Under the pieces are notes generated by a model. The model was given only the letters and a program-made list of their open reading frames with translations, had not been told where the DNA came from and did no database searches. A stretch of 64,000 nt of DNA. Origin: Candidatus Krumholzibacteriota bacterium. Its GTDB lineage: Bacteria; Krumholzibacteriota; Krumholzibacteriia; JAJRXK01. The position numbers and the translations under genes are program-made. Where the stretch lies: the NCBI GenBank assembly GCA_963727455.1, contig CAVSGG010000005.1, forward strand, positions 66,081 to 130,080. Reading direction: 5' to 3'. Below, in pieces: positions 6,385-39,549 of this stretch. Position 1 is the first letter of the stretch. Each line of letters begins with the position of its first letter.

Positions 6385-6840
6385 ATGCGTCGAGGCCTCT
6401 TTCTGCTCTCGTGCCTACTGTTGTTCGGCATGCTGGTGCCAGGGTCCGCTCGGGCCACGCGCTCGGAGATGTGGAGTCTTCCCACCTATGAACCGGCACG
6501 TTGTCTGACCTGCCATACCTCTTCCGAGAGCGCACTCGACAACGATCCCTCTTTGGCAACGCAGTTGAATCCTTTCGGAGTCGACTGGAATTCGCTCGGT
6601 CGCGTCTGGGGCGAACAGATCGCCAAGCGTGACAGTGACGGTGACCAGTGTATCAACGGTGCCGAGCTGGGCGATTATACCGGGACGCAGTGGACGGGTC
6701 CTTACGTGGAGGATCCGACTCGCAATGAACAAAACAGCAATCCCGGCGTTGTCGACTGCACCCGTGCCTCGATCAACGATCGGAGCTGGGGTATTCTCAA
6801 GGCCGTGTTCGGAGAATCGAACAAGTTCAAATACCGATAA
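6385..6840 (+). CDS. small secreted protein with one CXXCH motif, an Asp-rich Ca-binding-like loop and an internal copy of the SWGxLKAxF tail motif
   Basis: Signal peptide MRRGLFLLSCLLLFGMLVPGSARA, CLTCH, DSDGDQCINGAELGD and SWGILKAVF, followed by 9 further residues. Confidence 0.6.
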   Translation: MRRGLFLLSCLLLFGMLVPGSARATRSEMWSLPTYEPARCLTCHTSSESALDNDPSLATQLNPFGVDWNSLGRVWGEQIAKRDSDGDQCINGAELGDYTGTQWTGPYVEDPTRNEQNSNPGVVDCTRASINDRSWGILKAVFGESNKFKYR

Positions 6841-6922
6841 TTCATCTGGGTGCAAACCCTTCTTGTCTCAGCCGACCAGCTTCGCGCTGGAGGCGTGTTT
6901 TTTTGCGAGGTGAAGCAAGGCG

Positions 6923-8212
6923 ATGCAGACGGTACGCGTTGTTCTGGGCGGCCAGTGGGGGGATGAGGGCAAGGGGAAGATCGTGGACTGCCTCGCGGCG
7001 GACGTGGATCTCGTGGCGCGCTTTCAGGGTGGCGCCAATGCCGGCCACACCGTGAAAGTGGGAGACCAGGAGTTCGTACTTCATCTGCTCCCCACCGGAG
7101 TGCTGCACGAGAGGGTGCGCTGCTTTCTTGGAGCGGCGATGGTGGTGGACACCTGGGCCCTGCTGGATGAGCTGGATGAGCTGAAGAAAGCCGGGATCGA
7201 TGTGGAGGATCGAGTTCACATCGCCACCTCGGCCCATTTGGTACTGCCTTTTCACCGTAGGGTCGACGAGCTGCGCGAGAAGAGCCTTCAGCGCAAGAGC
7301 ATCGGCACCACCGGCTGCGGCATCGGTCCCACCTACGAGGACAAGATGGCGCGCATGGGAATGCGTGCCTCCGATCTCCTTCGCACCGATGAGAACCTGA
7401 AGCGCTTGGTGATCGAGAAAGTGCTGCGCGCGAATCAATACATTGCGGCTCGCTTCGAGGCCCCGGCCTTGGCGGCGGAAGCCCTCGCGGTCGAATTGGT
7501 GGAGCAGGCCCAGCGTCTGCGACCGATGATCAAGAGCCCCTACGAGTTCATGGCACCCGTGCGCAACGGCGCCTGGAATGCGCTCTTGGAGGGGGCCCAG
7601 GGCACCCTCTTGGACATCGATCACGGTAGCTACCCCTTCGTGACCTCCAGCAGCTGTACTGTGGGAGGCGCTCTGATCGGCACTGGGCTTTCGCCGTGGC
7701 GCATCAGCGCGGTGACCTTGGTGATGAAGGCCTATTGCACACGCGTCGGGAATGGCCCGTTTCCCACCGAATTGCACGGTGACGAAGCCGAGGAGTTGCG
7801 CCGGCTCGGACACGAGTTTGGTGCGACGACCGGTCGTCCACGACGCCCAGGTTGGTTCGACGCGGTTGCCGCCAGGTACGCGGTCGATATCAATGGCGCC
7901 ACCGAACTCGCGCTGACGAAGCTGGACGTCCTCAGCGGGATGGAACGGATCAAAGTCTGCACGGGGTACACCATCGACGATGAGCCGGTCGATTCCTTCC
8001 CCGATGACGCCTTGCGGCTCGAGCGTTGCAAGCCACGCTTCATCGAGCTCCCCGGCTGGGAGGGCGAATTGTCCGAAGCCAAGAGCTTCGAGGACCTTCC
8101 GGAGAATACCCGCGGCTACATCAAAGAGCTGGAGAAGCTCACGGGCTGTCGGGCTCGCTACGTCTCCACCGGGCCCCAACGCGATCATTTCATCGATCGC
8201 GGCGAAGCCTGA
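6923..8212 (+). CDS. purA: adenylosuccinate synthetase
   Basis: QWGDEGKGKIVD P-loop, GGANAGHTV and GTTGCGIGPTYEDK. The protein is full length at 429 aa. Confidence 0.97.
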   Translation: MQTVRVVLGGQWGDEGKGKIVDCLAADVDLVARFQGGANAGHTVKVGDQEFVLHLLPTGVLHERVRCFLGAAMVVDTWALLDELDELKKAGIDVEDRVHIATSAHLVLPFHRRVDELREKSLQRKSIGTTGCGIGPTYEDKMARMGMRASDLLRTDENLKRLVIEKVLRANQYIAARFEAPALAAEALAVELVEQAQRLRPMIKSPYEFMAPVRNGAWNALLEGAQGTLLDIDHGSYPFVTSSSCTVGGALIGTGLSPWRISAVTLVMKAYCTRVGNGPFPTELHGDEAEELRRLGHEFGATTGRPRRPGWFDAVAARYAVDINGATELALTKLDVLSGMERIKVCTGYTIDDEPVDSFPDDALRLERCKPRFIELPGWEGELSEAKSFEDLPENTRGYIKELEKLTGCRARYVSTGPQRDHFIDRGEA

Positions 8213-8367
8213 AAATTTGCAGATTTCCAGCTTTGTTCCCACAGGCGGAGGGACAGTCCGCCCTCAGGACCTCATTCGCGGCACGACGAGAAGCAACTCG
8301 ACTCCACCGGGTTGCGATGCCCTTTTGGCACGTATCCTGTTCTGCTGCAATTTGAGGTCTGAAATCG

Positions 8368-9282
8368 ATGCACTGGCTCTACTGGATTACTCTCGCTCTC
8401 GCGATCGCGGCTCTCGGATCCTACGGCTTCCAATTCTGGCGGCGGCGTGGACGACTCGAGGCTCTGGCGCGGCGGCACCACATGCATCGCCCCAAGGGAG
8501 GCGAGTTTGAAACGGTCCTGAAGACACTCCCGGAAAATTGGACGAATGCCGGACTGCGAGACATCCTGGTGGGCACCGATGGGAGTGGACGTTACTTCTC
8601 CGCACGCAAGGGGTGGGGGGGAGAGATGCATGAGGTGTTTCTCGTCGAATTGAGTCAGCATACCCCCGCACGGGGACTTCAACTGCAGAGCAGACGAAAG
8701 AAAACCGACTCGGCCAGCTTGCACATGGGCTGGAATCTGACGCCGGAGCAAGCCCTGGATGCGACGGCACGCGAAGTCGTGCAGCGGGTACTCCGCGAAT
8801 TTGCCGCCTTCAAGATGCATCACCCCAGACCGCAGATCTCCTTGGAAGTGGGGGACAAGGGTGCGGTTCTCTACGCGCCGGCAGCAGGGGAGGAGCAGCG
8901 AATGCAATTCATTGCGGCCGCGCGCGTTCTGCGGGGAGATCTCCTGCACTGCCTCTTCCGACGCGCTTCCATCAGCACGAACCCTGCTTCTTCCTCCAAG
9001 CCCGAAGAACCGGCCCTTCCCGAGATCGAGGAAGTCCATCCCGACATCGAGCGTGCTCTGGGCAGCCTGGAGGCCGAGCCTGTCGTGAGCGCCAAGGAGC
9101 TGTTGGCGGAGAAACCGCCTCCGCCCAAGAAGGGCTGGCAACGGGTGAACGGCAAAGAGGTCTTCCAGATTCCCGAGCCCGAGGACAGAGTCGTGGTGCT
9201 CTCGGCCAGTGCCTCGCACACGAAAGCGATCAAGCCCATCAAGGGCGTGGATCAAGACAAGTCCAAGTTCTTCTTGCCCTGA
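8368..9282 (+). CDS. hypothetical membrane-anchored protein
   Basis: An N-terminal TM helix WITLALAIAALGSYGFQFW is followed by a Lys/Glu-containing soluble part. Third codon positions are G/C-rich in this frame. The overlapping 377-aa minus ORF is Arg/Gly/Ser-rich, as antisense frames are. I recognise no family. Confidence 0.5.
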   Translation: MHWLYWITLALAIAALGSYGFQFWRRRGRLEALARRHHMHRPKGGEFETVLKTLPENWTNAGLRDILVGTDGSGRYFSARKGWGGEMHEVFLVELSQHTPARGLQLQSRRKKTDSASLHMGWNLTPEQALDATAREVVQRVLREFAAFKMHHPRPQISLEVGDKGAVLYAPAAGEEQRMQFIAAARVLRGDLLHCLFRRASISTNPASSSKPEEPALPEIEEVHPDIERALGSLEAEPVVSAKELLAEKPPPPKKGWQRVNGKEVFQIPEPEDRVVVLSASASHTKAIKPIKGVDQDKSKFFLP

Positions 9283-11415: not shown

Positions 11416-11595
11416 ATGAAGGGACGAATTGTCTTGTCCCTTGTCTGCCTGCTCATCGCCGGTTGTTCGGAGAGTACCGAGCCTGGAAGCGTCAGAAAGC
11501 CCGGACGCCGTACAGCGACCGGGCTCGTTGGTATTCGGTTTTTCGAACGTGGATTCGGTCTCTGCTCGAGTCCGAACCCCAGAGAGCAGCTCTAG
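11416..11595 (+). CDS. possible 59-aa lipoprotein (below the ORF-track length cutoff)
   Basis: MKGRIVLSLVCLLIAGCSE has a lipobox LIAGC. The ORF ends at TAG 11593-11595 and overlaps the convergent gene's stop by 4 nt. Confidence 0.25.
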   Translation: MKGRIVLSLVCLLIAGCSESTEPGSVRKPGRRTATGLVGIRFFERGFGLCSSPNPREQL

Positions 11596-12287
11596 TAGCG
11601 CGCCTTGAGGGAACCCCAGGAGGTCTCCTCGGAAGTGACCTCACAGCTGGGGTAGATCACGATCGTCGCCTGCACCACATCACCCCAGGCTCCGGTCGTA
11701 GGGCCATTGCCGCAGTTGTCGTACATGAAGTACGGGTAGTCCGCGGGTAAGCCCATTAGCTGGGTGGTAGCAACGATCGCTGCGTTGCTGATGGTGTAGG
11801 TCATGCAGTTGATATACCCGTCAAAGGCTCCAAAGACGGAGATATCACTGACGACCCTCTGCAACACTCCACCCACGTACATATGCGTGGAGGTCACTAC
11901 CATCTGATCGACTTGAGCGGTGTAATCTTCATCACCCCAGGGTCCGGCCGCTGCGAACCAGAAGCTCCCGTTCTGGTAATGCGTCTCGTACTTGACATAG
12001 CCGGTGCCCGCGACGCGGGTATCCGAGGTGAGGGTCGGGGGGGCCATGATCGACGGACAGGTCAGAGTCCATTGCGTTCCCAGACTGCTTCCGTCCCAGG
12101 ATTGTGCGTTGATGGTGTTGCCGACCACGCCTTCATGGTAGGCGGGCGCCGGCCAGGATTCGCTGAAGTGACCCGGGAGCACTTGGCCCCCCAGATCGAT
12201 GGTGTCATAGGTACCGACCACTGGCGGTGCAGCGAGGGCCAGCGTCGGGAGAAGGAGGATTACGACGAACGGGACCAGTCGTCTCAT
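11592..12287 (-). CDS. secreted hypothetical protein ending in SWGSLKARY
   Basis: ATG 12287 follows an AAGGAG RBS. Signal peptide MRRLVPFVVILLLPTLALA. The C-terminal motif is encoded at 11595-11621. Confidence 0.7.
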   Translation of the reverse strand: MRRLVPFVVILLLPTLALAAPPVVGTYDTIDLGGQVLPGHFSESWPAPAYHEGVVGNTINAQSWDGSSLGTQWTLTCPSIMAPPTLTSDTRVAGTGYVKYETHYQNGSFWFAAAGPWGDEDYTAQVDQMVVTSTHMYVGGVLQRVVSDISVFGAFDGYINCMTYTISNAAIVATTQLMGLPADYPYFMYDNCGNGPTTGAWGDVVQATIVIYPSCEVTSEETSWGSLKARY

Positions 12288-14028: not shown

Positions 14029-14030
14029 AG

Positions 14031-19593: not shown

Positions 19594-20145
19594 ATGGACC
19601 ACCCACGTCCGTCTTTGAAATCTCTCGCCCTTCTCTCCGTAGTTCTTTGCTTGCTGATCGTCAACGCGGCGAACGCTCAAGAGTTGAGCGGCGTAACCAA
19701 TCCGGTGGGAGGGGGGTTCATCTGCCCTAACACCATACTCGTTGATCTTAACGTTGATGCGGCAGTGGTGGATCTTCGCGGTTTCTCACTCACGCTGAGT
19801 TACGATCCTGCCGTGCTCGATCCAATTTCCGTGAGCGCCGGATCACTAGTGGCTTCGGCGTCCTGTGCCAACACGCTGTATTGGATCGACGCCGGCACCA
19901 ACGATGGGAGTTTGGAAGTTGATCTAGCCCTCCTTGGATGTTCCGTGAACGGACCGGGGTCGGTTCTGAGCATCGAATTCGAAGGAGTCGGCGACGGGAC
20001 CACGACTCTGCAGTGTTCTAACAGTATCTTTCGGGACAGCGCGAATGCGGAAATCCCCGTGAGCTGTCTTCCCGTCGACATCAGCTATAGCTGCCCCGTG
20101 CCCGCGGCAGGACATTCCTGGGGCATGTTGAAGACCAGTTACTGA
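19594..20145 (+). CDS. secreted cohesin-like single-domain protein ending in SWGMLKTSY
   Basis: An AAGGAG RBS precedes ATG 19594. Signal peptide LALLSVVLCLLIVNAANA. The cohesin-like pattern runs LRGFSLTLSYDPAVLDPISVSAGSL...GSVLSIEFEGVGDGTTTL. The tail motif is at 20116-20142. Confidence 0.65.
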   Translation: MDHPRPSLKSLALLSVVLCLLIVNAANAQELSGVTNPVGGGFICPNTILVDLNVDAAVVDLRGFSLTLSYDPAVLDPISVSAGSLVASASCANTLYWIDAGTNDGSLEVDLALLGCSVNGPGSVLSIEFEGVGDGTTTLQCSNSIFRDSANAEIPVSCLPVDISYSCPVPAAGHSWGMLKTSY

Positions 20146-20187
20146 GTTCTTTTGTACTTGGGATTGAAAGTCCCGGAGAGGTAGATC

Positions 20188-23100: not shown

Positions 23101-26100
23101 CGACCGGACAAGCAGCTGGCCTCACTCTTGGGACTGAGCGATGCCAGCGGTACGCTGGACGACGGATATCTGCTGGTAGATACCTCAGTGGGACCGGGAG
23201 TGGGAATTGTCGGTGAGACCATCCAGTACCACAGTAGCGCGGATCTCTACGATCTCGCGGGAGCGACCGCTCTGGCCACCCTCTATTCCGATGCGACCAC
23301 GGCCACGACGCATCCCGCGGTCTCGCTGGTGAGCGTGGGAAGCAACGGCGGTCAGGCAGCCGCCTTCAGCTATGATCTGGCGCGTTCGGTGGTCTACACA
23401 CGTCAGGGAAATCCCGCCTGGGCCGGTCAAGAACGCGACGGCACCACGCCAATCCGTTCGGACGATCTCTTCTTTGGCGATGCCGCAGGCGATCCGCAAG
23501 CGGATTGGGTCGACCTGAACAAGGTCGCGATCCCACAGGCCGACGAACAGCAGCGCCTGCTCGCGAACCTCGTCCTCACGATGAACGAAGATCGCAAACC
23601 TCTGCCGCGATTTTGGTATTTCCCAAGAGGATTGCGTGCGGTAGTGGTAATGACGGGTGACGACCATGGCTCGGGGAGCAACTCGGTTGGTCGTTTCGAC
23701 ATCTACAAGGCGAGTGATCCCTCCGGCTGTTCCGTAGCGGACTGGGAATGCGTGCGAGCGAGCACCTATCTTTATCCCGCGTCGGGGGGAATGACCGACG
23801 CTCAGGCGGTCTATTACCAATCCCTGGGATTCGAGATTGGAGTGCACGTCACAACCTCCTGTGGAGATTGGACCGAGTCCTCCTTGGCCTCGGACTACAC
23901 CCAGCAACTGGGTGACTTCTACACTCTGTTTCCCAGTATGCCCACGCCGGATTCGGAGCGTACGCACTGCATCGCCTGGAGCGAGTGGGCCACCCAACCC
24001 AAGATCGAGCTTCAGAACGGCATCCGCCTGGATACCAACTACTACTACTGGCCGGGAAGCTGGCTGCAGGATCGACCGGGCATGTTCACCGGCTCGGGAA
24101 TGCCCATGCGTTTCGCCGATCTCGATGGAACGATGATCGATGTATATCAGGCGACGACACAGATGACGGACGAGTCGGATCAGAGCTTCCCCTACACCAT
24201 CGACACGCTCCTCGATCGGGCCCAGGGACCCGAAGGATACTTCGGATTCTTCACCGCCAACATGCACAACGACAGCGTCACGCATGCCTCCGCATCGGCG
24301 ATCATCGCCTCCGCGCAAGCGCGCGGGGTGCCGGTGATCTCCGCTCGTCAATTGCTCACCTGGATCGATGCGCGCAACAGCTCGTCGTTCTCCAACCTGG
24401 TGTGGTCCTCGAATACCCTGAATTTCGACGTTGCCCGTTCCGCCTCGGCCCTGAATCTCGAAGGAATGATCCCTGTGCAGGTGGGGGCGGCAACTCTGCA
24501 GAGCCTCAGTGGGGACCTTGGATCGGTCTGGGAGCGCACGGAGATCATCAAGGGCATTCAGTACGCGATCTTTCCCGCCGAGAGTGGCAGCTACGTTGCC
24601 ACTTACGAAGTGGACACGACACCGCCGGTGATCAGCAACGTGAACGCGGCTCCCGCGATCGATGGAACTGCAGTGATCACCTGGGATACCGACGAAGCGG
24701 CTAGCTCGCGGGTGGACTATGGCACTGATGCGGGCAACCTGAATCTCAGCGTGTCCGACGCGACCCTGGAGAGCAGCCACAGTTTGACCCTGACCGGGCT
24801 GGCTTCCGCGACGACCTACTACTATCGGGTGAGCTCGGCCGACGCAGGCGCATTGCTCAGCACCGAACCGCCCACCGGAAACGCTCCGCTGAGCTTCCTG
24901 ACCCCGGTGGGGCCCTGTCTGAACGATGCCACGGTGGCCGATTTCGCGGCCGGAACGCCCGATGCCAATGTCTACATTTCCAAGATCTTCGACGGCGAGC
25001 TCACCCTCGCGCCGACCGAGGTGGCGGAATTTGATGGCAGCGCCGTGCCGGCAGGTTGGAACAGCGGACTGTGGGATCCCTCCGGCAGCGCGACGGTTTC
25101 CGGTGGAGTCCTCACGCTCGATGCGGCCTATACGGGCACTGACCAGGTCTACGGTCCTGATCGGGCAGTGGAGTTTGCGGGCACCTTCCAGAACGTCGGA
25201 GGCCAGCACTGTGGTTTTGGCGTGACCTTCAACGAAACCAACTGGGCGATCTTCAGCACCGGCGTCAGCGGGGGCACGCTCTACGCCAGGGTGGCCGATG
25301 GCGGCACGCTCATCGACTTCGACTTGGGCTCTTCCACGCTGGGAAGCGAGCATCTCTATCGCATCGAATGGGCAAGCTCCGAGGTGAGGTTCTACATCGA
25401 TGACGTTCTGGTTCATACCGAGTCCATCGTGCTCAGTACCTCCATGCGCCCTCTGGCCAGTGATCTCAACCCCGGCGGACCGGATCTTACGATCGACTGG
25501 ATGCGCATGTCGCCGTATGCATCCTCGGGTACCTATCTCTCGCGAGTGTACGATGGGGGGGAGGCAACCAACTGGGGCATGATCAACTGGGACGCCGTGG
25601 AACCGCTCAATACGAGCGTGAGTGTGGCGGTGCGCATTGGCAATACTGCAACCCCCGATGCTTCCTGGTCTCCCTTCGGTGTCATCGCCAATCCAGGTGA
25701 CGTGGTGGGCGGCAACAGTCGCTACGTACAGTACCGCGTCATTCTGACGAGCTCGAATCCTCTGAACAACCCCCTCCAGAAAGATGTGGTACTCGAGTGT
25801 GCCCCGGGACCGGATGTCGATCCTCCGGTGATCCTGAACGTGGTGGCAACACCATCCATCGACGGAACCGCGGCCACTGTAAGCTGGACCACCTTGGAGG
25901 CAGCGGATTCGCGGGTAGATTACGATACCTCACCGACGCCGCTGACACTGCAGGAAAGTGACGCCTCTCTGGTGTTCAATCACTCGGTGGATCTGACCGG
26001 ACTTACCCCGGGACAAACCTATTACTTCCGGGTCAGCTCGGCGGACGCAGCCAGCAACAGTGCCACCGAGCCGATCCTCGCGGATCCAGCGCTGAGCTTC

Positions 26101-28362
26101 ACGACACCGGCGCCCGCGTGCGCGATGGTGAGCACGAGCGGCGAATTCGCGGCGGGAAGTTCGGATGCCGGCATCACTGTGGCCGAGATCGACGATGGTG
26201 CCCTCATTTTGACCCCCACCGAGGGTTCAGATTTCAGCGGCACGAGCCTGCCTTCGGGTTGGCAGAGCACACCTTGGGTCGCCGGAGGCGGAGGAGTGGT
26301 GAGCGGGGGCGTCCTCTCGGTGGACGGTGCTCTTGTCGGTACGAACACGGTCTATTCGCCGGGACGGGTCCTGGAATTCCAGGCGACCTTCGGCCCCGAG
26401 ATTTTCCAACACGTGGGCTTTGCGGTGGATTTCGACACCGTGGATAGCTGGGCCATGTTCTCGACTTCCAATCAGACCAGCGATCTCTATGCTCGCACTT
26501 CTCCGGGAGGGGCCGACGTCAACCTGGGTAGTGGCTACGTGGGAAGTTCGCATCTCTATCGCATCGAGTGGAATGCCGATAGCGTCCTGTTCTACATCGA
26601 TGGAGTGCTGGTCAACACCCAGAACGTGAGTATCGCCACCGACATGCGGCCCGTCGCCAGCGACGTTCACTACAACGATGGCAATCTCATCGCAATTGAC
26701 TGGCTGCGGATGACGCCCTACGCCTCATCCGGCACTTGGGAATCGACGATTCACGATACGGGGCAGTCCAATTCCACCTGGCATACTCTGAGCTGGACGC
26801 AGAACGTGCCGGACGGAACTTCAGTTGTGGTGAGTTCTCGCGCTGGCGACACGCCGACACCCGATGGAAGTTGGAGCAGCTACACTCCGGTGGCCTCCTC
26901 CGGGACGGACCTCGCTCTCGCAGGGCAGTACCTGCAACTCCGGGTGCAGCTCTCCAGTCTCGATGGCACTGCGACCCCGGTCTTCGAGGACTACTCGGTC
27001 ACCTGCACCGGCTGTCTCGACAACACACCGCCGGACGCCTTGACGAACCTGACGGCGACTCAGGTCAAGTCGGGCAATCCGGTGGGCCAACTCACACAGA
27101 TCACCGTGAGTTGGAGCGGAAGTGAGCCGGGTTCTACCGTGGAAGTGTTCCGCAAAGGCTTCGGTGACTATCCCGCATACGATGACGGACCCACCCCAGG
27201 AGTTGCGCCCACGTTGCCGGCCGATCCGGCGGCGGCAGCGAGTGAGGGTTGGAGTTCGGTATATCAAGGCTCCGGTCTCGAGTTCACAGAGTTGCCTCCC
27301 TCGCGTGACTTCTGGTATTACGTCGCATTCGTCACTGACGCCTGCGAGAATGTCTCGGCCGTCTCGAACATGACGACAGGCACCTTGAGCTATCATCTGG
27401 GCGACGTGTCGGATGGAGTGACCGCAGGGACGGGAAACAACGATGTGGCCCTCGAGGACATCTCTTACCTCGGCGCTCATTACGGAACAAGCCGCGGCGA
27501 GGCCCTCTACGAAGCGGCCCTGGATGTGGGACCAACGAGCACGACGACCATCGATGGCCGTCCGACGACCGATGGTCTTATAGGCTTTGAGGATCTCATC
27601 CTGTTCGCGATCAACTTCGGCGTCGTTTCCAAACAGGAGACCGCTTGGACCCCGCCCAAGACGGCAGGCATCAACTCTCTGGTGTGGCAAGCGCCGGCGA
27701 CTCTGCCGGCGGCGGGAGAGGTGGTCGATCTACCGCTCGTCATGGATGGTAATGGGGCCGTGCTGGGACTCAGCACGCGATTGCAGTGGGATCATTCAGT
27801 CTTGGCCTTCCAGGGTTTCTACGCAGGAGAGCTTCTCTCCAAGCAGGAGGGCACGGAGCTTCTTTTGCAGCCGGAAGAGGGTGTGATGGATCTGACTCTG
27901 TTGGGCGTGCGAGAGAGGGGGATCCAGGGAAGGGGAATCCTTGCTCACGCGAGCTTCAAGGTGCTTAAACAGGCCGATCCAGGGTTTGCGACCGGAGAAG
28001 TCGTTGCGCGTGATCTCAACAACACAAAGGTGGATGTGACGGTGGAACTGTCGCATGACCAGGCGCCTGTGATCAGCAGACCGCTCGTGACGGCTCTTCA
28101 CCCGAACTATCCGAACCCCTTCAACCCCAGCACCTCGATCGCTTTCGATTTGGCCCGAAGTGGACCGGTCTCGCTGAAAATTTACAGCGTGAGCGGCCGC
28201 CTGGTAAGAACTCTGATCAACGAGCTCCGTCCGGCCGGCAGTTTCGTCGAGGTGTGGAATGGAACCGATGACACGGGGCGTGGAGTGGCCTCGGGCAGCT
28301 ACCTGGTGCGGCTCCACACCGAGGCGGGATCACAGATTCAGCGGATGATCCTGAGCAAGTAA
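20188..28362 (+). CDS. 2724-aa secreted multidomain surface protein
   Basis: Signal peptide. N-terminal segment IVTENALPGNPPSEWDV...YRIDIYRLGFYGGDGARKV. DUF4082-like CPCTLW...NYWVDVRF at 22033-22512. Two 400-aa tandem modules. Dockerin-like segment at 27397-27621 (GDVSDG...DGLIGFEDLILFAINFG). Cohesin-like segment at 27679-28050. C-terminal domain HPNYPNPFNPSTSIAFDL...GSYLVRLHTEAGSQIQRMILSK at 28084-28359. Confidence 0.85.
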   Translation: MSRARVFSTVLSFLALIVFAAGSAWAQNAIVTENALPGNPPSEWDVSGAGDQSIQGFATDISVDQGETIDFKIRTDASSYRIDIYRLGFYGGDGARKVATVLPSATLPQTQPSCISDSATGCLDCGNWDVSASWAVPVDATSGIYLAKLVRTDPEDGRASHIVFIVRDDDGGSDLLFQTSDTTWQAYNRWGESDPTGGYSIYEGPTGKADKISYNRPFGTRAYPTEDWLFNAEYPMVRWLERNGFDVSYFTDVDTDRRGAEILEHQVFMSVGHDEYWSRAARENVTAARDAGVNLAFFSGNEIYWKIRWEDSIDGNGTPMRTLVCYKEGDLGENQCFDKCDPVSDVWTGLWRSGCDYTPPADGCEPENALSGQISWLGTTGAITVPSTYKDLPLWRNTSIATLGPEETATFPSGTLGYEWDFEQYEDSYPAGRIRMSETHQDGETHQLSLYRHSSGALVFGAGTVQWSWGLDANHDRSGGAEDARMQQATVNVLADMGVQPATLQTGLVAATPLSDSTAPVSVIAFPTDGSSVEVGTPATISGTASDSGGGAVALIELSFDGGATWQTAQGLSNWSYQWTPTSTGPVTIMSRATDGAFNTQTPGAGISLTVDPHVCPCTLWSDAVIPGTIDSGDALAVELGMKFQTEENGYITAIRFYKAATNTGVHVGNLWASDGTLLGSATFSAESASGWQEEPLNPPVAVTANSTYVVSYHTNTGYYSVDSGYFASTGLSNPPLRALAEGEEGSNGVYKYGATSAFPTDAFNSSNYWVDVRFHTSAVDDQAPYLTIHSPATGALGVAVESKVTATFNESVDPLSVVFELRDAGNNLVTTNFSYDGPSRTAILDPAVDLDYSSQYTATLSDATDLASNSLSAPVSWSFNTEDVPPPPPDEGPGGPILVVGDAANPFTRYPAEILRTEGLNAFTASDITLIDASVLANYDVVILGEMALSAAQVTMFSDWVNAGGNLIALRPDKQLASLLGLSDASGTLDDGYLLVDTSVGPGVGIVGETIQYHSSADLYDLAGATALATLYSDATTATTHPAVSLVSVGSNGGQAAAFSYDLARSVVYTRQGNPAWAGQERDGTTPIRSDDLFFGDAAGDPQADWVDLNKVAIPQADEQQRLLANLVLTMNEDRKPLPRFWYFPRGLRAVVVMTGDDHGSGSNSVGRFDIYKASDPSGCSVADWECVRASTYLYPASGGMTDAQAVYYQSLGFEIGVHVTTSCGDWTESSLASDYTQQLGDFYTLFPSMPTPDSERTHCIAWSEWATQPKIELQNGIRLDTNYYYWPGSWLQDRPGMFTGSGMPMRFADLDGTMIDVYQATTQMTDESDQSFPYTIDTLLDRAQGPEGYFGFFTANMHNDSVTHASASAIIASAQARGVPVISARQLLTWIDARNSSSFSNLVWSSNTLNFDVARSASALNLEGMIPVQVGAATLQSLSGDLGSVWERTEIIKGIQYAIFPAESGSYVATYEVDTTPPVISNVNAAPAIDGTAVITWDTDEAASSRVDYGTDAGNLNLSVSDATLESSHSLTLTGLASATTYYYRVSSADAGALLSTEPPTGNAPLSFLTPVGPCLNDATVADFAAGTPDANVYISKIFDGELTLAPTEVAEFDGSAVPAGWNSGLWDPSGSATVSGGVLTLDAAYTGTDQVYGPDRAVEFAGTFQNVGGQHCGFGVTFNETNWAIFSTGVSGGTLYARVADGGTLIDFDLGSSTLGSEHLYRIEWASSEVRFYIDDVLVHTESIVLSTSMRPLASDLNPGGPDLTIDWMRMSPYASSGTYLSRVYDGGEATNWGMINWDAVEPLNTSVSVAVRIGNTATPDASWSPFGVIANPGDVVGGNSRYVQYRVILTSSNPLNNPLQKDVVLECAPGPDVDPPVILNVVATPSIDGTAATVSWTTLEAADSRVDYDTSPTPLTLQESDASLVFNHSVDLTGLTPGQTYYFRVSSADAASNSATEPILADPALSFTTPAPACAMVSTSGEFAAGSSDAGITVAEIDDGALILTPTEGSDFSGTSLPSGWQSTPWVAGGGGVVSGGVLSVDGALVGTNTVYSPGRVLEFQATFGPEIFQHVGFAVDFDTVDSWAMFSTSNQTSDLYARTSPGGADVNLGSGYVGSSHLYRIEWNADSVLFYIDGVLVNTQNVSIATDMRPVASDVHYNDGNLIAIDWLRMTPYASSGTWESTIHDTGQSNSTWHTLSWTQNVPDGTSVVVSSRAGDTPTPDGSWSSYTPVASSGTDLALAGQYLQLRVQLSSLDGTATPVFEDYSVTCTGCLDNTPPDALTNLTATQVKSGNPVGQLTQITVSWSGSEPGSTVEVFRKGFGDYPAYDDGPTPGVAPTLPADPAAAASEGWSSVYQGSGLEFTELPPSRDFWYYVAFVTDACENVSAVSNMTTGTLSYHLGDVSDGVTAGTGNNDVALEDISYLGAHYGTSRGEALYEAALDVGPTSTTTIDGRPTTDGLIGFEDLILFAINFGVVSKQETAWTPPKTAGINSLVWQAPATLPAAGEVVDLPLVMDGNGAVLGLSTRLQWDHSVLAFQGFYAGELLSKQEGTELLLQPEEGVMDLTLLGVRERGIQGRGILAHASFKVLKQADPGFATGEVVARDLNNTKVDVTVELSHDQAPVISRPLVTALHPNYPNPFNPSTSIAFDLARSGPVSLKIYSVSGRLVRTLINELRPAGSFVEVWNGTDDTGRGVASGSYLVRLHTEAGSQIQRMILSK
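24613..25812 (+). repeat. tandem 400-aa module, copy 1 (FN3-like + ConA/LamG-like + beta-sandwich) inside the giant ORF
   Basis: Starts at DTTPPVISNV. Contains YYYRVSSAD, HLYRIEWASSEVRFYIDDVLVHTE and IDWMRMSPYASSGT. Confidence 0.8.
25813..27018 (+). repeat. tandem 400-aa module, copy 2
   Basis: Starts at DVDPPVILNV, exactly 1200 nt after copy 1. Contains YYFRVSSAD, HLYRIEWNADSVLFYIDGVLVNTQ and IDWLRMTPYASSGT. The copies are divergent, so the repeat is at protein level rather than DNA level. Confidence 0.8.
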
Positions 28363-29633: not shown

Positions 29634-30746
29634 TCAGCGGGAGCCGAACTGCGCTTTCAATCGGCCGATTGTCGTCGTTTCGGAGGGCACGAGGTTCTCG
29701 AGGACCACGCTGGCGGCATCGTAGAGAATCACGACGAGATCGATCGGCGTTCCGTCATTCAGATTTCCGGTGAGGTGGTTTTCAGCCCCGAGTCCCTGGC
29801 TACCCTCGATCGAAAGATGATGTCCGGTCACCGTGAGCACAGAGCTTCCCCAGAGCACGATGTGGCCCTGGTAGTCGCCACCGGAGAGGAAGATCTTGGA
29901 GTTCTTGAAGGCCTCGATGCAGATGGGGGAAGCGCTCGAGGAAGTCCCGCCGATGAATTGACCTCCTTCGACGGCGACTTCCGCGTCTTCGTCCGTGCAG
30001 AGCGCGCGACCGCCCGCGGCGGAGCCGCTGGAAGCGCCCCCGGTGAAGCTGCCACCGGTGACGGTCAGCGAACCTCCACTCAAAAAGAGCGCGTCGCCCC
30101 CCGTGCTGGGGCCTCGTCCCCCCGCAAGAGTGCCTCCGGAGATCGTTCCCGTGCCGCCAGCGTACTTCAGGGCAACTCCACCCTTGCCGCTCGCCCCATC
30201 GCCGCCCTGGACCACGCCACCGCTCATTTGAAGGCTCCCCCATGCGTAGATTCCGAAGCAGCCATGGCGCAGGGTACCGCCCCCCACGATCGTCCCTCCC
30301 AGGATCCGGCAGACGTAGGCGGAGCTTCCACCGACAAAGAAGAGGGCGCTGGAGGTGTAGGTACTCGTGGAGTAGGCGGCGCGGATCTCCGCTCCCTCGT
30401 GAACTTCGACCTGACAGTAGGTGCTCGTCAGTCCTCCGGCTCCCAGCTCGCCGCCGGTGCCCTGAAGCAGGCCACCGCTGACCAGGATGGTCGATCCGCT
30501 AGCGCCGGTCACCGCAGTGCCGTTGAGCAGGGGCTGCACCTCGGCTCCCGCCATGATCTCCAGCGTGGTTCCGCTCTCGACGAAGATCTGTTCCTGCGCA
30601 TTGCCGTCGAGGAGGTGGGAGCCGCCGTCGGCGTAGATCACCGCGTGCGCGGTCTTGGATTGAGCGAGGAGGCATGTGCCGAACACGAGTACGGTGATTA
30701 GAACGGAGTATGCGTGGGAATCGACTGCATGCGTTCGGCGGAACAT
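29634..30746 (-). CDS. secreted Gly-rich beta-helix/passenger-like repeat protein ending in TIGRLKAQF-GSR
   Basis: Signal peptide VLITVLVFGTCLLAQSKTAHA. Repeated GGx(L/I)xxxGG coils, for example GGSLTVTGGSFTGGASSG and GGTISGGTLAGG. The tail motif is at 29646-29672. Confidence 0.7.
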   Translation of the reverse strand: MFRRTHAVDSHAYSVLITVLVFGTCLLAQSKTAHAVIYADGGSHLLDGNAQEQIFVESGTTLEIMAGAEVQPLLNGTAVTGASGSTILVSGGLLQGTGGELGAGGLTSTYCQVEVHEGAEIRAAYSTSTYTSSALFFVGGSSAYVCRILGGTIVGGGTLRHGCFGIYAWGSLQMSGGVVQGGDGASGKGGVALKYAGGTGTISGGTLAGGRGPSTGGDALFLSGGSLTVTGGSFTGGASSGSAAGGRALCTDEDAEVAVEGGQFIGGTSSSASPICIEAFKNSKIFLSGGDYQGHIVLWGSSVLTVTGHHLSIEGSQGLGAENHLTGNLNDGTPIDLVVILYDAASVVLENLVPSETTTIGRLKAQFGSR

Positions 30747-30994: not shown

Positions 30995-31498
30995 ATGAAG
31001 ACTCTGCGATATGTTCTTCTACCATTTATCATTCTTCTACTGTTCGCCGCACCGGCCCGGTCGCAGACGGTCGAATTTCCTTCCAGCTGGGAGGGAATCT
31101 GGGACTTCAACGTGACCGAGAAGGAATGCACCACGAGTGCCATTCTTGATAGTTATGCCGAGCGCGATACGTTCTGCGCGGGGTCAGCGATCAACGATCC
31201 AGGAGAAGTCTGTACCGGGTATATCAACGACACCGGAATCGATGTCGTCTGCGGACAGACCGCGGAGCCCTTCCCTGACTGTGGCTTGACGATCACTGTT
31301 ACCATTGAAGGATCGAGGAACGGGAATTCGATCGCGGGTACGACCACCACGACTTTCGAATACACTCCGAACTGCGGACTTCCCGATACCTGTACGAAAG
31401 AGGAACTCCAGGGGACTTTCGTTTCGACCAATCCGGACCTCTGCCCAAGTGTGGCAGTGGGGGACAAGAGCTGGGGGGCCTGGAAAGCGCGTTATTGA
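30995..31498 (+). CDS. small secreted Cys-rich protein ending in SWGAWKARY
   Basis: A GAGGAG RBS and signal peptide VLLPFIILLLFAAPARS. The mature part has 9 Cys. The tail motif is at 31469-31495. Confidence 0.7.
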   Translation: MKTLRYVLLPFIILLLFAAPARSQTVEFPSSWEGIWDFNVTEKECTTSAILDSYAERDTFCAGSAINDPGEVCTGYINDTGIDVVCGQTAEPFPDCGLTITVTIEGSRNGNSIAGTTTTTFEYTPNCGLPDTCTKEELQGTFVSTNPDLCPSVAVGDKSWGAWKARY

Positions 31499-31677: not shown

Positions 31678-32403
31678 ATGAAGCGTATGCTAACGATTTC
31701 CCTCTTCACCGCGATGGCCATTCTGGCCATGGCGAGTCTCGCATTCGGGCAGACCTGCCAGGATCTCCATGACTCCGCGAACGGCTGTGGGCCGTCCTCC
31801 TTTGACACACAGACTGTCACCGTGACAGGTGTCGTGTACGTGGAGAATGGGGTCTACAATGGTGGCTCCGTCTACATTCAGTGCCCCGGTGGCTCCGGCG
31901 GCATCACCATCTTTGACTATGACCTGGCTGGCGTCGTCTCCAACGGCGATGAGATCTCCGTCACGGGAGTCGTGGACGACTACAACGGCGAGATCGAGAT
32001 CATCGGCAATTATGGGGCGGATCCGGCGTCAGTTACGATCAACAGCAACGGCAACCCCGTAGCTGCGACTGCCATCGGAACGGCAGATCTGGCTGACGGC
32101 ACCAACCTTTTCGGAGACTACTTGGAGGTCACCGGAACTCTGGCGCTGGTGAGCTCGGGCTTCAACTCCACCTACACGGTGGATGACGGCAGCGGTCCAG
32201 TGACGGTATATGTCGACGGTACGACGGGCATCGACACCGCGGGCCACGTGGACAATTTCCTGGGCGACATCGTCACCGTCCGTGGCGCGTCGAAGTGCTA
32301 CAACGGCTCGGGCGAACTCCTGCCGCGCAACGATGCCGACGTGATCCTGACCGCAGTTCCCGCTCCAAGCGTGAGCTGGGGTTCGATGAAGGCGCAGTAC
32401 TAA
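31678..32403 (+). CDS. secreted protein with two OB-fold-like repeats, ending in SWGSMKAQY
   Basis: Signal peptide MLTISLFTAMAILAMASLAFG. The two similar halves are VTVTGVVYVENG...EISVTGVVDDYNGEIEI and YLEVTGTLALVSS...IVTVRGASKCYNGSGEL. The tail motif is at 32374-32400. Confidence 0.65.
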   Translation: MKRMLTISLFTAMAILAMASLAFGQTCQDLHDSANGCGPSSFDTQTVTVTGVVYVENGVYNGGSVYIQCPGGSGGITIFDYDLAGVVSNGDEISVTGVVDDYNGEIEIIGNYGADPASVTINSNGNPVAATAIGTADLADGTNLFGDYLEVTGTLALVSSGFNSTYTVDDGSGPVTVYVDGTTGIDTAGHVDNFLGDIVTVRGASKCYNGSGELLPRNDADVILTAVPAPSVSWGSMKAQY

Positions 32404-33009: not shown

Positions 33010-33081
33010 AGTGCGAAGTACGCGTTGTCTTTGCCCCGAAATCCAGGGTTTTTCCCCTTCGCACCATCCAGGAGGCCAGGA

Positions 33082-36375: not shown

Positions 36376-37056
36376 CTAGTACCAGGACTTCAACATCCCC
36401 ATCGTACTCTCGGGAACTGGGTCGGGGTAAAAGATCCCTACCTCCTTCCCGCCGTCCGCGATGGTCCACCGGTGGAGGCGCACATCGCTCGAGGAGCATA
36501 CGAAGTAGCCAACAGTCCCCGAGATGAGATCGTTGGTGGTTAGCCGGACGAAGAAAAAGAATCCGGGTGAATTCGCGACAACGACATCGAAGCTGCCGAG
36601 CACGAACAAGCCAACTGAAGAGATACAATCCGGTGGTTCGACTTCAAACTTCACCTGTTGCGTTCCGTCAGGTCCAGTTACACCGGGACTGAATGCGTAG
36701 TTTGTACCCTCTGGAAAGTGAGGGACGATCAGGCTGTAGCCTGAGATCTCCAAGCCCAAGTTGAACCTCTCTACGTCCGCGGAGAGATCTTTGGCCACGA
36801 CGTAGGCGGTGAAACCATCACGACCGTAGTCGTCTTGCCAGTAGTATTCCTGGCCACAGTCTTGGCCCGGACCGCAGGGTGAAATGTAATTCGCGGTTCC
36901 TTCGGGATTGAGATAGATCCCGATCTCGCCCGAGGCAGGTTGAGCGCGCGCGGGAAGCGAGGTCGTGAGGGAGAAAGTGAGAATGAGGGAGAAAACGAGA
37001 ACGACGGGAAGTGCAAGAAGGGCAAGGCGGCGCACTCGCGGGGAGGAAATGTCCAT
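36376..37056 (-). CDS. secreted hypothetical protein ending in TMGMLKSWY
   Basis: Signal peptide LALLALPVVLVFSLILTFSLTTSLPARA. The tail motif is at 36379-36405. G+C is lower than the surroundings. Confidence 0.65.
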   Translation of the reverse strand: MDISSPRVRRLALLALPVVLVFSLILTFSLTTSLPARAQPASGEIGIYLNPEGTANYISPCGPGQDCGQEYYWQDDYGRDGFTAYVVAKDLSADVERFNLGLEISGYSLIVPHFPEGTNYAFSPGVTGPDGTQQVKFEVEPPDCISSVGLFVLGSFDVVVANSPGFFFFVRLTTNDLISGTVGYFVCSSSDVRLHRWTIADGGKEVGIFYPDPVPESTMGMLKSWY

Positions 37057-37269: not shown

Positions 37270-37506
37270 TCGCGAAGTTCCTCCGAACGCCCCTTCGATG
37301 TCCTGGGATGACGTGGACTGTCCCGGAATCGGGGCAACTGCCAGCTTCTGACCATCGAGTGCAATCGTTCACGAGCTTGCCTCAGGCTTCTCTCCCGCGC
37401 TGAGAGCAGATTTTAAGCCTGTTTCAAAGCTTGAAGCGCAGCTCGTAGCGTGCGGCATCCCTCATGCTAGCTCGCCACAGGATCGCCTCCGCAGGAGATC
37501 CTGCGC

Positions 37507-38133
37507 ATGTCTCGTGTCGTTGCTCTCGCCTGCCTTCTCGTGTTCTCGTGTTTGACCGCTTGTGGCAGGGAGCCCTCGAAAGAGCTGCTTGCCGCTCCCC
37601 CCGAGAGTGTCCGAAGCGCGACGGATTCACTGATGGGCATGGATCCGGGGGAGACACTTCCCGCGGATCGCCGTAGGGCGCTCTCCGCGGATCCCGAGCT
37701 GGAGGAGTTCCTCTGGCGCGCGCAGTTTCTGTTGCGGCGGCTCTCTGTCCATCCGCCCACGCCCGAGGAGATGCAGCGAGCGGTGCGCGCGGGGCCAGCG
37801 GGCTTCGCCGATCTTGCGGGGATCTCACCTGCCGAACTCAGCGCGCGCATGGATACCTTGCGCTGGCAAGGGGTAGTTCTTTTGCAGCGTTACTCTGCGC
37901 TAGCGGCCTGCCTTGAAGAGGTCGAACGCGAGGAGGGGCCTCCCTCTGATCCGAGCGATGCAGTTGGATTGGTACAGGAGCTGAGATCGCAGGCCAAGAG
38001 ACGCGGACAGCCGCGTCTGAACCGCGAAGATCTGCCCTATGTCGCTTCCCTCATCCTGAGCGCCGCCACTGGTAATCCAGTTCTCTATTTCATTGGTTCG
38101 GCGCTGGCCACGTGCACTTGGAGACGCGGCTGA
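37507..38133 (+). CDS. hypothetical lipoprotein
   Basis: MSRVVALACLLVFSCLTACG has a lipobox LTAC. I recognise no family. Confidence 0.55.
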   Translation: MSRVVALACLLVFSCLTACGREPSKELLAAPPESVRSATDSLMGMDPGETLPADRRRALSADPELEEFLWRAQFLLRRLSVHPPTPEEMQRAVRAGPAGFADLAGISPAELSARMDTLRWQGVVLLQRYSALAACLEEVEREEGPPSDPSDAVGLVQELRSQAKRRGQPRLNREDLPYVASLILSAATGNPVLYFIGSALATCTWRRG

Positions 38134-38173
38134 GGCCACAAACCTCCGAGAAACTGGACTTGAAATTTCCTTC

Positions 38174-38204
38174 TTGACATAATCTATGGGGGGGGGGGTA
38201 CATT
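38174..38204 (+). promoter_or_regulatory. promoter candidate TTGACA-N19-TACATT whose spacer contains a G11 homopolymer
   Basis: TTGACA at 38174-38179, G run at 38188-38198 (11 G counted) and TACATT at 38199-38204, about 190 nt upstream of ATG 38395. Confidence 0.35.
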
Positions 38205-38394
38205 GATCCTGTTTCACGGGGACTAAACCCGGCAATGAATTGGAATTTGCAGCGCGGCTCCTACCTTTGCGCTGCGGCTGCTTTGAGCAGCCCATGAATG
38301 ATCAGAGTGGGACCAATGTCCACGGGCAGGAATAACCTCGTCACTGATTTTGCCTGCGCGCCGTACTCGGACCGTGAAACGACTGGAGATTGCA

Positions 38395-39549
38395 ATGCAA
38401 GCTGAGAGACTCCGCTTTCTCGTCATGCTCCTTCTTCTACTTTCCTCGAGTTCTGCCCTGGCTAACACCCTCACCGTGAGTAAGTGGGGAACCCCAGACT
38501 ACCAGGTATTGCAGGAGGCGCTCGACGCCGCGGCACCTGGCGATACGATTCTGATCCAGGGTGGTACGTTCGCGGAGACCACGACACGCTACTGGGATAG
38601 CAGGAACCGGGAAGCAGTAGGATGGATCGATAAACCGCTCACGGTCATAGGCAGTGAGCAGGCCTGGCTGGATGGGCCGGATGGTACTGAGAACTATTGT
38701 CTCTTCACAAACCATGACTGTTCATTTCAAGGAATTCAGATCAAGGACGGTGGAGGATACGGCATTCTGATTTGGGCGGGCACGTCTAAAGTTCGGGATT
38801 GCAAACTTCAGGACCTCGGGGATGGAGTTTTCTGTGGAAATCCAGGGGCGCACGTGTCGGTTTCAGACAGTGAGTTCTATCGATGCTACTATTCGTGTAT
38901 TGGCGTGACGATCAGCGCTATCGCCGAGGCGGATAGTTGCTACTTCGAGGCCAGGACGGGTCCTGGTGCTGTAAGCAAGGCGTGCTATGTCTCATGGGAT
39001 GGTAGCATCACTCTGTCCAACTCGGAGTTCATCCGCTATGGGATGGTGGAGATCTATGGCCCGGGAATCGCCAATGTTACCGGGTGCACGGCACGCGACT
39101 TAAGAGTCTCCGCCCTTCTCGCTTGGAATGGAGGGGTGATCCATGCTTCCCAGTGTTCGTGTGCAGGCGGTGATTCACTTCCTGGGCCCAACGGAATGGA
39201 GGTTTCCAGCGGTGGTCGGATCATCGCTGATAGCTGTAGGTTCGATGATATGACGTATGGAGCGGTGGGAAGCACTTCCGGATTTGTTGAGCTCCATGAC
39301 TCTGAGATCACGAATTCGCGTCTGTACGCCGTGCTCTTGGATTCGTATACGTATGGGCCGAAAGTAACTCTCGATTTTACAGGCAACTGGTGGGGGACCA
39401 CCGACTCCACCGCTATCGCAGCAAGTATCTATGATGGCCACGATGACCCTGTCAAAGACCCATTGGGTTTTGTTGAGTTCTGGCCGATACGGGATGTTCC
39501 CTTGCCGGCTCAGGAAGGCTCCTTCGGGAGACTGAAAGCACAGTACTGA
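38395..39549 (+). CDS. secreted right-handed parallel beta-helix repeat protein ending in SFGRLKAQY
   Basis: Signal peptide FLVMLLLLLSSSSALA. Beta-helix N-cap pattern PDYQVLQEALDAAAPGDTILIQGGTFAE. The tail motif is at 39520-39546. Confidence 0.7.
   Translation: MQAERLRFLVMLLLLLSSSSALANTLTVSKWGTPDYQVLQEALDAAAPGDTILIQGGTFAETTTRYWDSRNREAVGWIDKPLTVIGSEQAWLDGPDGTENYCLFTNHDCSFQGIQIKDGGGYGILIWAGTSKVRDCKLQDLGDGVFCGNPGAHVSVSDSEFYRCYYSCIGVTISAIAEADSCYFEARTGPGAVSKACYVSWDGSITLSNSEFIRYGMVEIYGPGIANVTGCTARDLRVSALLAWNGGVIHASQCSCAGGDSLPGPNGMEVSSGGRIIADSCRFDDMTYGAVGSTSGFVELHDSEITNSRLYAVLLDSYTYGPKVTLDFTGNWWGTTDSTAIAASIYDGHDDPVKDPLGFVEFWPIRDVPLPAQEGSFGRLKAQY

Follow-up and report, generated by a model that had tools for sequence, protein, structure and literature searches.

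The stretch of DNA analysed in this work (the window) comprises 64,000 nucleotides of contig CAVSGG010000005.1, from a Candidatus Krumholzibacteriota bacterium. Eight of its genes encode putatively exported proteins which end in, or close to, the same nine-residue peptide (hereafter, the tail), a share of about one gene in every six or seven. The eight carriers, as read from the window, were the following (the tail is directly followed by the stop codon unless otherwise indicated):

6385..6840, plus strand: gene 1, a signal peptide, a CxxCH/Temptin_C-like body (Pfam Temptin_C, E 5e-11) and the tail SWGILKAVF (6784..6810), followed by nine further residues (GESNKFKYR) and the stop codon.
11592..12287, minus strand: gene 2, a signal peptide, a beta-rich body of unknown fold (from the homologue and structure analyses), a linker and the tail SWGSLKARY (11595..11621).
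19594..20145, plus strand: gene 3, a signal peptide, a single cohesin module (Pfam Cohesin, 25.2 bits, cut-off 24.1) and the tail SWGMLKTSY (20116..20142).
29634..30746, minus strand: gene 4, a signal peptide, a Gly-rich body (no Pfam or NCBIfam match) and the tail TIGRLKAQF (29646..29672), followed by GSR and the stop codon.
30995..31498, plus strand: gene 5, a signal peptide, a Cys-rich body (from the sequence) and the tail SWGAWKARY (31469..31495).
31678..32403, plus strand: gene 6, a signal peptide, an OB-fold-like body (Pfam OB-fold, 27.3 bits, two stretches) and the tail SWGSMKAQY (32374..32400).
36376..37056, minus strand: gene 7, a signal peptide, a body distantly related (24-25% identity) to the Krumholzibacteriota "IG.TFDEAGT" family of cohesin-like fold, and the tail TMGMLKSWY (36379..36405).
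38395..39549, plus strand: gene 8, a signal peptide, a right-handed beta-helix (Pfam Beta_helix, E 1e-11) and the tail SFGRLKAQY (39520..39546).

A six-frame reading of the window returned all eight tails at the coordinates and on the strands given in a preliminary description of this DNA; the start of gene 6 needed a small correction, being most likely the ATG at 31678. The pattern of that description ([ST]-[WFMI]-G-x-[LMW]-K-[AST]-x-[YF]) matched eight times among the 902 open reading frames (ORFs) of at least 40 amino acids, always 0-9 residues from the stop codon and never internally, compared with a mean of 0.002 matches (maximum 1) in 2000 residue shuffles of the same ORFs. Differing codons were used in 74 of the 124 identical residue pairs between window tails (Trp and Met not counted), and the mean nucleotide identity of the 27-nucleotide segments encoding the tails was 57%, so that the conservation is, as first proposed, at the protein level and not that of a DNA repeat.

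The eight N-termini, previously described as signal peptides, were typical of Sec type I when read by eye (a basic n-region, a hydrophobic h-region and an AxA-like site), with apparent cleavage sites ARA|T, ALA|A, ANA|Q, AHA|V, ARS|Q, AFG|Q, ARA|Q and ALA|N; GGAG-like ribosome-binding sites preceded seven of the eight starts. The bodies between signal peptide and tail proved unrelated, also in agreement with the preliminary description: BLASTP among the eight proteins aligned the tails alone, save for genes 4 and 6, which shared a marginal alignment of Gly-rich sequence (22% identity over 212 columns, E 7e-4 for a database of eight sequences), and Pfam recognized Temptin_C (with CxxCH), Cohesin, OB-fold and Beta_helix in four of the proteins, the other four being without a match. 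Orthologues of window genes with 79-98% identity were present in Candidatus Krumholzibacteriota metagenome-assembled genomes (MAGs; loci L007, L041 and L061), so that the window comes from a close relative. The L007 orthologue of gene 1 was 98% identical and had the same tail, and that of gene 5 was 44% identical and retained the tail as SWGTLKASY; homologues of gene 8 with 26-28% identity retained tails such as SLGEVKALYR and VWGNLKAMYR.

The distribution of the tail was analysed by scanning one genome per species (185,579 species) for the DNA pattern [ST]-W-G-x-L(CTN)-K-A-x-Y-stop. There were 74 matches in 71 loci, of which about 55 lay at the end of a genuine ORF, in almost every case one with a signal peptide. 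These real tails were confined to Poribacteria, Krumholzibacteriota, Eisenbacteria/Eiseniibacteriota and a few further MAGs: one Gemmatimonadales, one labelled Planctomycetota (with Poribacteria-type tails), high-GC (guanine plus cytosine) MAGs labelled Fibrobacter(aceae), and unclassified ones. The remaining matches (about 19) were attributed to chance: ORFs of 10-67 amino acids lacking a signal peptide, in Bdellovibrio, Dyadobacter, Veillonella, Pseudomonas, Halobacillus and others, together with out-of-frame sites in Poribacteria. The sole match in the IMG/VR viral collection was an ORF of 12 amino acids. Including many tails outside the strict pattern in the loci fetched, 83 distinct tails were collected, from genomes spanning 39% to 72% GC; the tail is not specific to the genome in which it was first seen. 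The Fibrobacter sp./Fibrobacteraceae-labelled contigs with tails (L011, L038 and L060) had 67-72% GC, far from cultured Fibrobacter, and this label is therefore probably unreliable.

Signal-peptide-like N-termini were found, by a crude rule, in 59 of 70 tail genes vs. 81 of 349 neighbouring genes, and several of the 11 tail genes failing the rule had obvious signal peptides when read by eye. Lipobox-like signal peptides were rare (five crude pattern matches among the 59; one clear case by eye). The cargo of the tail in the other phyla included LamG, NPCBM and Big_5 domains, as well as families without a Pfam match.

The nine residues first described as the motif form its core, with the consensus [ST]-W-G-x-[LIV]-K-[AST]-x-[YF], though the whole motif is longer, since a linker with a conserved V/P located 6-10 residues upstream of the core belongs to it too. 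The general anatomy comprised a folded body (often Cys-closed), a disordered linker of about 8-20 residues, the core, and 0-3 polar residues (rarely up to about 10) before the stop codon; the tail must sit near the C-terminus, though the terminus itself is unnecessary. The linker read "VPxxxx" in Krumholzibacteriota and "[AS]V-x-P-x-x-K-L-[AST]-T-[TS]" in Poribacteria. Poribacteria also had variants without the final aromatic residue (KLTTTWGSIKSK, TTWSAIKMVVER and ...TTWGSIKSK). An upstream-extended motif, P-x-x-K-L-[AST]-T-[TS]-W-G-x-[LI]-K, was observed in L006, L034, L042 and L062 (Poribacteria and the Planctomycetota-labelled MAG); some of the copies in these loci end without an aromatic residue, which suggests [ST]-W-[GS]-x-[LIV]-K as the minimal core.

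A word-indexed search with gene 2 gave 85 homologues (33-97% identity, mostly of about 230-250 amino acids). The tail was present in 79 of these, even at identities of about 33%; of the six without it, four looked frameshifted and two had variant tails. Conservation among the 79 tails was very high: [ST] in 77, W in 79, G in 73, [VIL] in 74, K in 77, [AST] in 70 and [YF] in 77. Mean column identity over the alignment of the family was 43%, the tail was the most conserved part of its carrier proteins and, judging from these sequences, it is under purifying selection. The aromatic residue was terminal in 10 of the 79 proteins; the other 69 continued for 1-3 residues (R, GE, SE, TD and similar). 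Tail conservation was equal in the beta-helix (gene 8) and cohesin-like families (7 and 27 matches, respectively), in which nearly all full-length members had the tail.

An exhaustive profile search with the gene 2 family among 1.84 billion representatives gave 332 proteins (E<=0.001). Of the best 150 of these 332, 144 were newly found, and 106 of the 144 matched the tail pattern, with at least two more showing a truncated or variant tail by eye. Thirteen remote members among the best 150 had the same body followed directly by a canonical PEP-CTERM signal, e.g. ...ITPEPATLSLVALGGALALLRRRRK (by pattern and by eye). Nine of the 13 were scanned against NCBIfam, TIGR02595 scoring above its curated cut-off in seven cases and slightly under it in two (15.4 and 14.3 bits). 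Another member, the 985-residue P0159, ended in a C-terminal domain (CTD) of type A for type IX secretion (the T9SS; TIGR04183, 35.5 bits, cut-off 23). The tail thus occupies the slot of known C-terminal sorting signals, in that homologues carry PEP-CTERM or a T9SS CTD at this place. Alternative anchors sought in the beta-helix and cohesin-like families were uninformative, both families being too lineage-restricted. No PEP-CTERM-like ends were found in 612 kb of DNA from the lineages with tails.

The linker of several family members (P0045, P0049, P0070, P0071 and others) reads C-x-V-P-x-E-P-[ST]-[ST]-W-G and resembles the VPEP[ST] start of PEP-CTERM, and the PEP-CTERM variants of the family have ...[IV]-[TV]-P-E-P-[AS]-T-L... 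at the place of the linker. The tail may derive from a PEP-CTERM signal stripped of its transmembrane helix, or the reverse.

The structure of the gene 2 protein was predicted with AlphaFold2 from a 65-sequence alignment (mean predicted local distance difference test, pLDDT, of 90.9). The model had a beta-rich body up to about residue 212, a low-confidence linker (residues 213-223) and a seven-residue helix (WGSLKAR, pLDDT of about 47-58) which was not packed against the body; Foldseek found no significant match of this body in the PDB. The commonest Krumholzibacteriota tail family ("QNIG.TFDEAGT", the P0244 family, without a Pfam match, of which gene 7 is a distant member) was modelled with a body above 90 in pLDDT, about 20 linker residues below 57 and a detached tail helix at about 45. 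This body was cohesin-like, with a Foldseek probability of 1.00 to many cohesin modules and E-values down to 3e-4. Across the two unrelated families, linker and tail had a pLDDT of 43-75 and the bodies were above 90, which suggests, at low confidence, that the tail is a free peptide tethered behind a disordered linker. On a helical wheel drawn from the position counts, W0, Φ3, L6 and Y7 would share one face, flanked by K4 and R8, with the small residues G1 and A5; the variable positions 2 and 6 would be i/i+4 apart and exposed. The Thr-rich Poribacteria extension would fit a beta-strand equally.

The tail had been described as distinct from PEP-CTERM, LPXTG, GlyGly-CTERM and the T9SS CTD and as without a named model, and the scans agreed with this: no Pfam or NCBIfam model matched the tail in the eight window proteins (E<=1), and no NCBIfam model did so in 65 family members. 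The silence of NCBIfam is meaningful, since the same library (E<=0.1) detected the 24-residue PEP-CTERM domain in control homologues. No description of the tail was found in the searchable literature. Specific memberships were rejected as follows: PEP-CTERM, for want of any TIGR02595 match (E<=1, in the eight window and 65 family proteins) and of a hydrophobic stretch; signals of the LPXTG, GlyGly-CTERM and MYXO-CTERM type, because the tail has neither a transmembrane helix nor an NCBIfam match; the T9SS type A CTD, because the tail spans 9-18 amino acids and the tail proteins gave no match to TIGR04183, PF18962 or PF13860; and dockerin, because they gave no Dockerin match and the tail is far below the duplicated Ca-binding module of about 60-70 amino acids (PF00404). 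The suggested likeness to the beta-signal of outer-membrane proteins or to a PDZ ligand was not sustained, since most family members carry residues after the aromatic one: the beta-signal was rejected on the 69 extended tails of the gene 2 family and on the Poribacteria variants without an aromatic residue, despite the terminal aromatic in six of the eight window tails; the last strand of a transmembrane beta-barrel, on the soluble beta-rich or cohesin-like bodies (AlphaFold2, Pfam) and on the detached tail, which is no barrel strand; and a PDZ or carboxylate ligand (the YxF of DegS, Tsp/Ctp substrates), on the residues that follow the aromatic one at the end of the chain, which vary and in many cases carry a charge (R, E, D, K).

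Several known systems share features with the tail. The PEP-CTERM/exosortase signals are likewise short, C-terminal and borne by unrelated Sec-exported proteins in many copies per genome, and they occupy the same position in the remote homologues of gene 2. Unlike them, the tail lacks a transmembrane helix and an Arg-rich cluster, and an integral-membrane exosortase could not hold such a signal in the same way. The T9SS type A CTD (TIGR04183/FlgD_ig-like) also has no transmembrane segment and is read after Sec export in bacteria of the FCB group; it coexists with the tail in the same genomes and replaces it in P0159. This CTD is, however, a folded immunoglobulin (Ig)-like sandwich of 60-100 amino acids with motifs B, D and E, and even the "short CTDs" of Prevotella are domains of about 60 amino acids (PMC11969387), whereas the tail is an unstructured or helical peptide without any of these motifs. 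The beta-signal read by BamA/BamD is a short C-terminal motif with alternating hydrophobic residues and an aromatic residue near the end, as is the tail, but the tail aromatic is usually non-terminal in the family sample, the cargo is no barrel, and a disordered linker lies between the two.

In secretins (PulD-PulS, OutD-OutS), the disordered C-terminal peptide of the S-domain becomes a short amphipathic helix on its pilotin partner, which then brings the secretin to the outer membrane. Mechanistically, this is the closest parallel to a helical tail on a tether, though pilotins serve a single family, the secretins, and the tail is common to dozens of unrelated cargos; no pilotin-like partner for the tail was identified. 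Anchoring scaffoldins combine cohesins with SLH (SdbA/OlpB) or LPXTG (ScaE) anchors. Similarly, gene 3 and the members of the cohesin-like family each consist of one cohesin-type module with the tail at the anchor position; the differences are that the hosts of the tail are diderm, that the anchor is a nine-residue peptide in place of an SLH domain or sortase signal, and that the sole sign of dockerin was a weak match. The periplasmic enzymes PBP5/PBP6 are Sec-exported and, having no transmembrane segment, are held through an amphipathic helix at the C-terminus, but their helices are longer than the tail and have no conserved motif common to unrelated proteins.

The preliminary description had also pointed to two other window proteins with a FlgD/T9SS-like domain, here a FlgD_ig/TIGR04183-type CTD of about 80 amino acids:

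20188..28362, plus strand: a secreted protein of 2724 amino acids with a FlgD_ig/T9SS type A-like CTD (TIGR04183 and FlgD_ig models), the second kind of C-terminal signal in this genome.
41461..42330, plus strand: a secreted protein of 289 amino acids ending in a FlgD_ig-type CTD (FlgD_ig 44 bits; TIGR04183 19.7 bits, below the 23-bit cut-off).

The CTD of both proteins was above the cut-off for PF13860, and that of the larger one alone for TIGR04183. The domains of the 2724-residue protein were DMFA2_C, DUF4082, Big_5, fn3, a cohesin module (about 27694-27984) and the T9SS-type CTD; a dockerin in it was plausible by eye and went undetected by Pfam. Gene 3 lies directly upstream of this protein, a synteny preserved in L061 (another Krumholzibacteriota MAG), and the pair (19594-28362, plus strand) may form a cohesin-based surface complex.

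A partner for the tail was sought among neighbouring genes. All-versus-all clustering of 566 ORFs from the 71 tail loci and the window revealed as recurrent only CTD proteins, PorU and generic families. The 37507-38133 lipoprotein and the other window genes of unknown function had no homologues beside tails elsewhere, and the 20-kb contexts showed housekeeping genes and one PMT_2 glycosyltransferase only. In two Krumholzibacteriota MAGs, a PMT_2 (GT-C) glycosyltransferase and an acetyltransferase flanked 3-4 tandem cohesin-like tail genes (L158, 14124-16194; L159, 5523-7315); the [ST][ST] ahead of W could be a glycosylation site.

Genes for PorU-like T9SS sortases adjoined tail genes in four Krumholzibacteriota loci (L012, L019, L035 and L075) and were located a few genes away, with housekeeping genes between, in two Poribacteria loci (L058 and L063). 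The PorU-like proteins matched NF033707 (E 1e-102 and 1e-47, below the curated cut-off) and had a CTD of their own. In the Krumholzibacteriota cluster, two or three tail genes lay immediately upstream of the PorU-like gene, closely packed and all facing the same way; in L035, three tail genes and the PorU-like gene were preceded by a gene with a weak likeness to dockerin (Dockerin_1, 18.9 bits). The generality of this arrangement was assessed by scanning metagenomes with a PorU alignment, which gave 80 PorU-like loci (883 kb). Tail genes were present in a single locus, the Krumholzibacteriota-like L075 (two true tails), with one additional chance C-terminal match in the 883 kb. A general link between tail and T9SS/PorU was therefore rejected, and the adjacency is lineage-specific, as 79 of the 80 PorU loci had no tails. 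There were no true tails in Bacteroidota in the 185,579-species scan. Proteins with a FlgD/T9SS-type CTD were also seen in Krumholzibacteriota, Eisenbacteria, Poribacteria and one unclassified high-GC MAG.

We consider the tail to be a C-terminal signal, so far undescribed and lacking a transmembrane segment, for the sorting or anchoring of Sec-exported proteins (probability of about 0.6). Choice-of-anchor reasoning looks for the same motif at the end of many unrelated signal-peptide proteins of one genome, and for known sorting signals at the same position in homologues elsewhere; the former was found here, and the latter in one family. The preliminary description had proposed anchoring, sorting or quality control: the PEP-CTERM signal or T9SS CTD at the same position in homologues favours the first two, and quality control was unsupported. 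Following Sec export and loss of the signal peptide, a single dedicated protein of the envelope (a receptor, shuttle or sortase-like enzyme, in the periplasm or at the outer membrane) would recognize the tethered peptide, either as an amphipathic helix of two turns or as an added beta-strand, and would bring the cargo to the cell surface or retain it there. A protein would be expected in this role because the residues are conserved too strictly for mere binding to lipid; among the candidates is a T9SS component, though not a favoured one. Most of the cargo consists of small modules (lectin-like, cohesin-like, Ig-like and beta-helix), which points to proteins of the surface or matrix, and such a destination would also follow from the analogy with scaffoldins and from the exchange of tail and PEP-CTERM. 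The wider proposal, a whole undescribed sorting system common to Krumholzibacteriota, Eisenbacteria, Poribacteria and related uncultured lineages, in which this short peptide without a transmembrane segment and its putative receptor or sortase would serve dozens of surface proteins in each genome, alongside T9SS and in place of PEP-CTERM/exosortase, is tentative, at somewhat under even odds.

Several points weigh against the sorting-signal interpretation. The localisation of every tail protein is inferred, signal peptides were scored by the crude rule and by eye and not by a trained predictor, and the conformation of the tail was predicted at low confidence. Choice-of-anchor reasoning depends here on position, and on a single family. 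The neighbourhood analysis found no receptor or processing enzyme and no neighbour conserved across phyla; the sole suggestive one, the PorU-like sortase gene forming an operon with three tail genes, was confined to Krumholzibacteriota.

Four other explanations were considered. The tail might be a miniature counterpart of dockerin, docking non-covalently into a protein scaffold (the candidates being the abundant cohesin-like modules, among them the cohesin of the 2724-residue CTD protein) and building surface complexes, or head-to-tail polymers of the cohesin-like tail proteins, with no role in transport. The anatomy of a tethered peptide fits this, gene 3 has a Pfam cohesin, the largest Krumholzibacteriota tail family is cohesin-like by fold, the giant CTD protein adjoining gene 3 includes a cohesin module, and the weakly dockerin-like gene of L035 lies upstream of tail genes. 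It seems nevertheless unlikely: in the AlphaFold2 model the tail stayed away from the cohesin-like body of its own chain, despite a linker of about 20 residues, the sampled Poribacteria cargo was mostly LamG/NPCBM with no cohesin partner in the sampled loci, and the crossing of the outer membrane by tail proteins would be left unexplained. So would the exchange with PEP-CTERM, which serves sorting and is no docking module.

Quite unlikely, too, is an in-plane amphipathic membrane anchor acting without a protein receptor, by insertion of W, L and Y and snorkelling of Lys/Arg. The C-terminal helices of PBP5/PBP6 and the membrane-targeting sequence of MinD are anchors of this kind, and the short helix predicted in both modelled families (7 residues, pLDDT 43-58), the grouping of W0, Φ3, (L6) and Y7 on one helical face flanked by K4 and R8, and the rarity of lipobox-like signal peptides, as expected if the tail replaced a lipid anchor, are all consistent with it. 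However, the identity of the residues (W in 79, G in 73 and K in 77 of 79 tails of one family, with the same residues recurring across phyla at 39-72% GC) is too strict for a purely physicochemical anchor, the small G1 and A5 of the opposite face are conserved too, and 7-9 residues are below the length of known monomeric in-plane anchors.

Very unlikely is a minimal T9SS-linked signal, read by a T9SS component such as PorV or processed by a PorU-like sortase at the invariant Lys or at the [ST]-W junction as the site of cleavage or ligation. The lineages with tails in which the CTD was seen also hold FlgD/T9SS-type CTD proteins, and PorU-like genes lie beside or a few genes from tails in the six loci cited above. 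Against this, tail genes occurred in one of 80 PorU loci and no true tail in Bacteroidota, the Poribacteria PorU gene and the tail genes are parted by housekeeping genes, and the known signals fold as Ig-like domains, about 60 amino acids long or more, whose motifs B, D and E (PMC11969387) the tail does not share.

The least likely of the four, in which the Φ-x-aromatic-COOH end mimics a beta-signal for BamA/BamD, is a ligand of DegS/DegP-type PDZ domains or Tsp/Ctp, or acts as a degron, draws on the terminal Y/F of six of the eight window tails and of most stop-anchored Krumholzibacteriota/Poribacteria tails, on hydrophobic residues at -2 and -4, and on a W...K...aromatic spacing which we take to recall loosely the darobactin sequence WNWSKSF, and fails on the 69 of 79 tails in the unbiased family sample that are extended by 1-3 residues, on the two window tails extended by 3 and 9, on Poribacteria variants such as ...TTWGSIKSK, on bodies that are soluble beta-sandwich, cohesin-like or beta-helix domains of which the tail is not the last strand and, for a degron, on a strong purifying selection on dozens of unrelated proteins that would be hard to rationalise.

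The C-terminal sorting signals LPXTG, PEP-CTERM, GlyGly-CTERM and the T9SS CTD each led to a dedicated sorting machine, and surface proteomes are predicted from them. The tail would be a further signal of this sort, with a substantial chance of its marking a new sorting system. It is probably carried by dozens of genes per genome, and has been overlooked by annotation pipelines in several phyla with hardly any cultured members, Poribacteria (symbionts of sponges) among them. Its definition flags many "hypothetical proteins" as putative envelope or surface proteins with lectin-like, cohesin-like and beta-helix modules, and offers a handle for finding the cognate receptor via phylogenetic profiling and peptide-receptor modelling. 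As a very small tag (about 16 residues), it might also serve for surface display in the lineages which use it.

Other features of the window included a protein of 467 amino acids (53170-54570, minus strand) matching the VC2662 family and LA_2272 surface-repeat models, probably an envelope protein, without tail or CTD. A leukotriene-A4-hydrolase-like M1 aminopeptidase was split into two ORFs (33079-34368 and 34369-34857, both plus strand) covering model positions 1-418 and 520-595, which could reflect a frameshift, a pseudogene or an assembly error. Adjacent genes for GatD (43256-44641, minus strand; 499 bits, cut-off 324) and GatE (44641-46701, minus strand; 468 bits, cut-off 456) were recognized by the archaeal-type NCBIfam models; this GatDE Glu-tRNA(Gln) amidotransferase is unusual for a bacterial genome.

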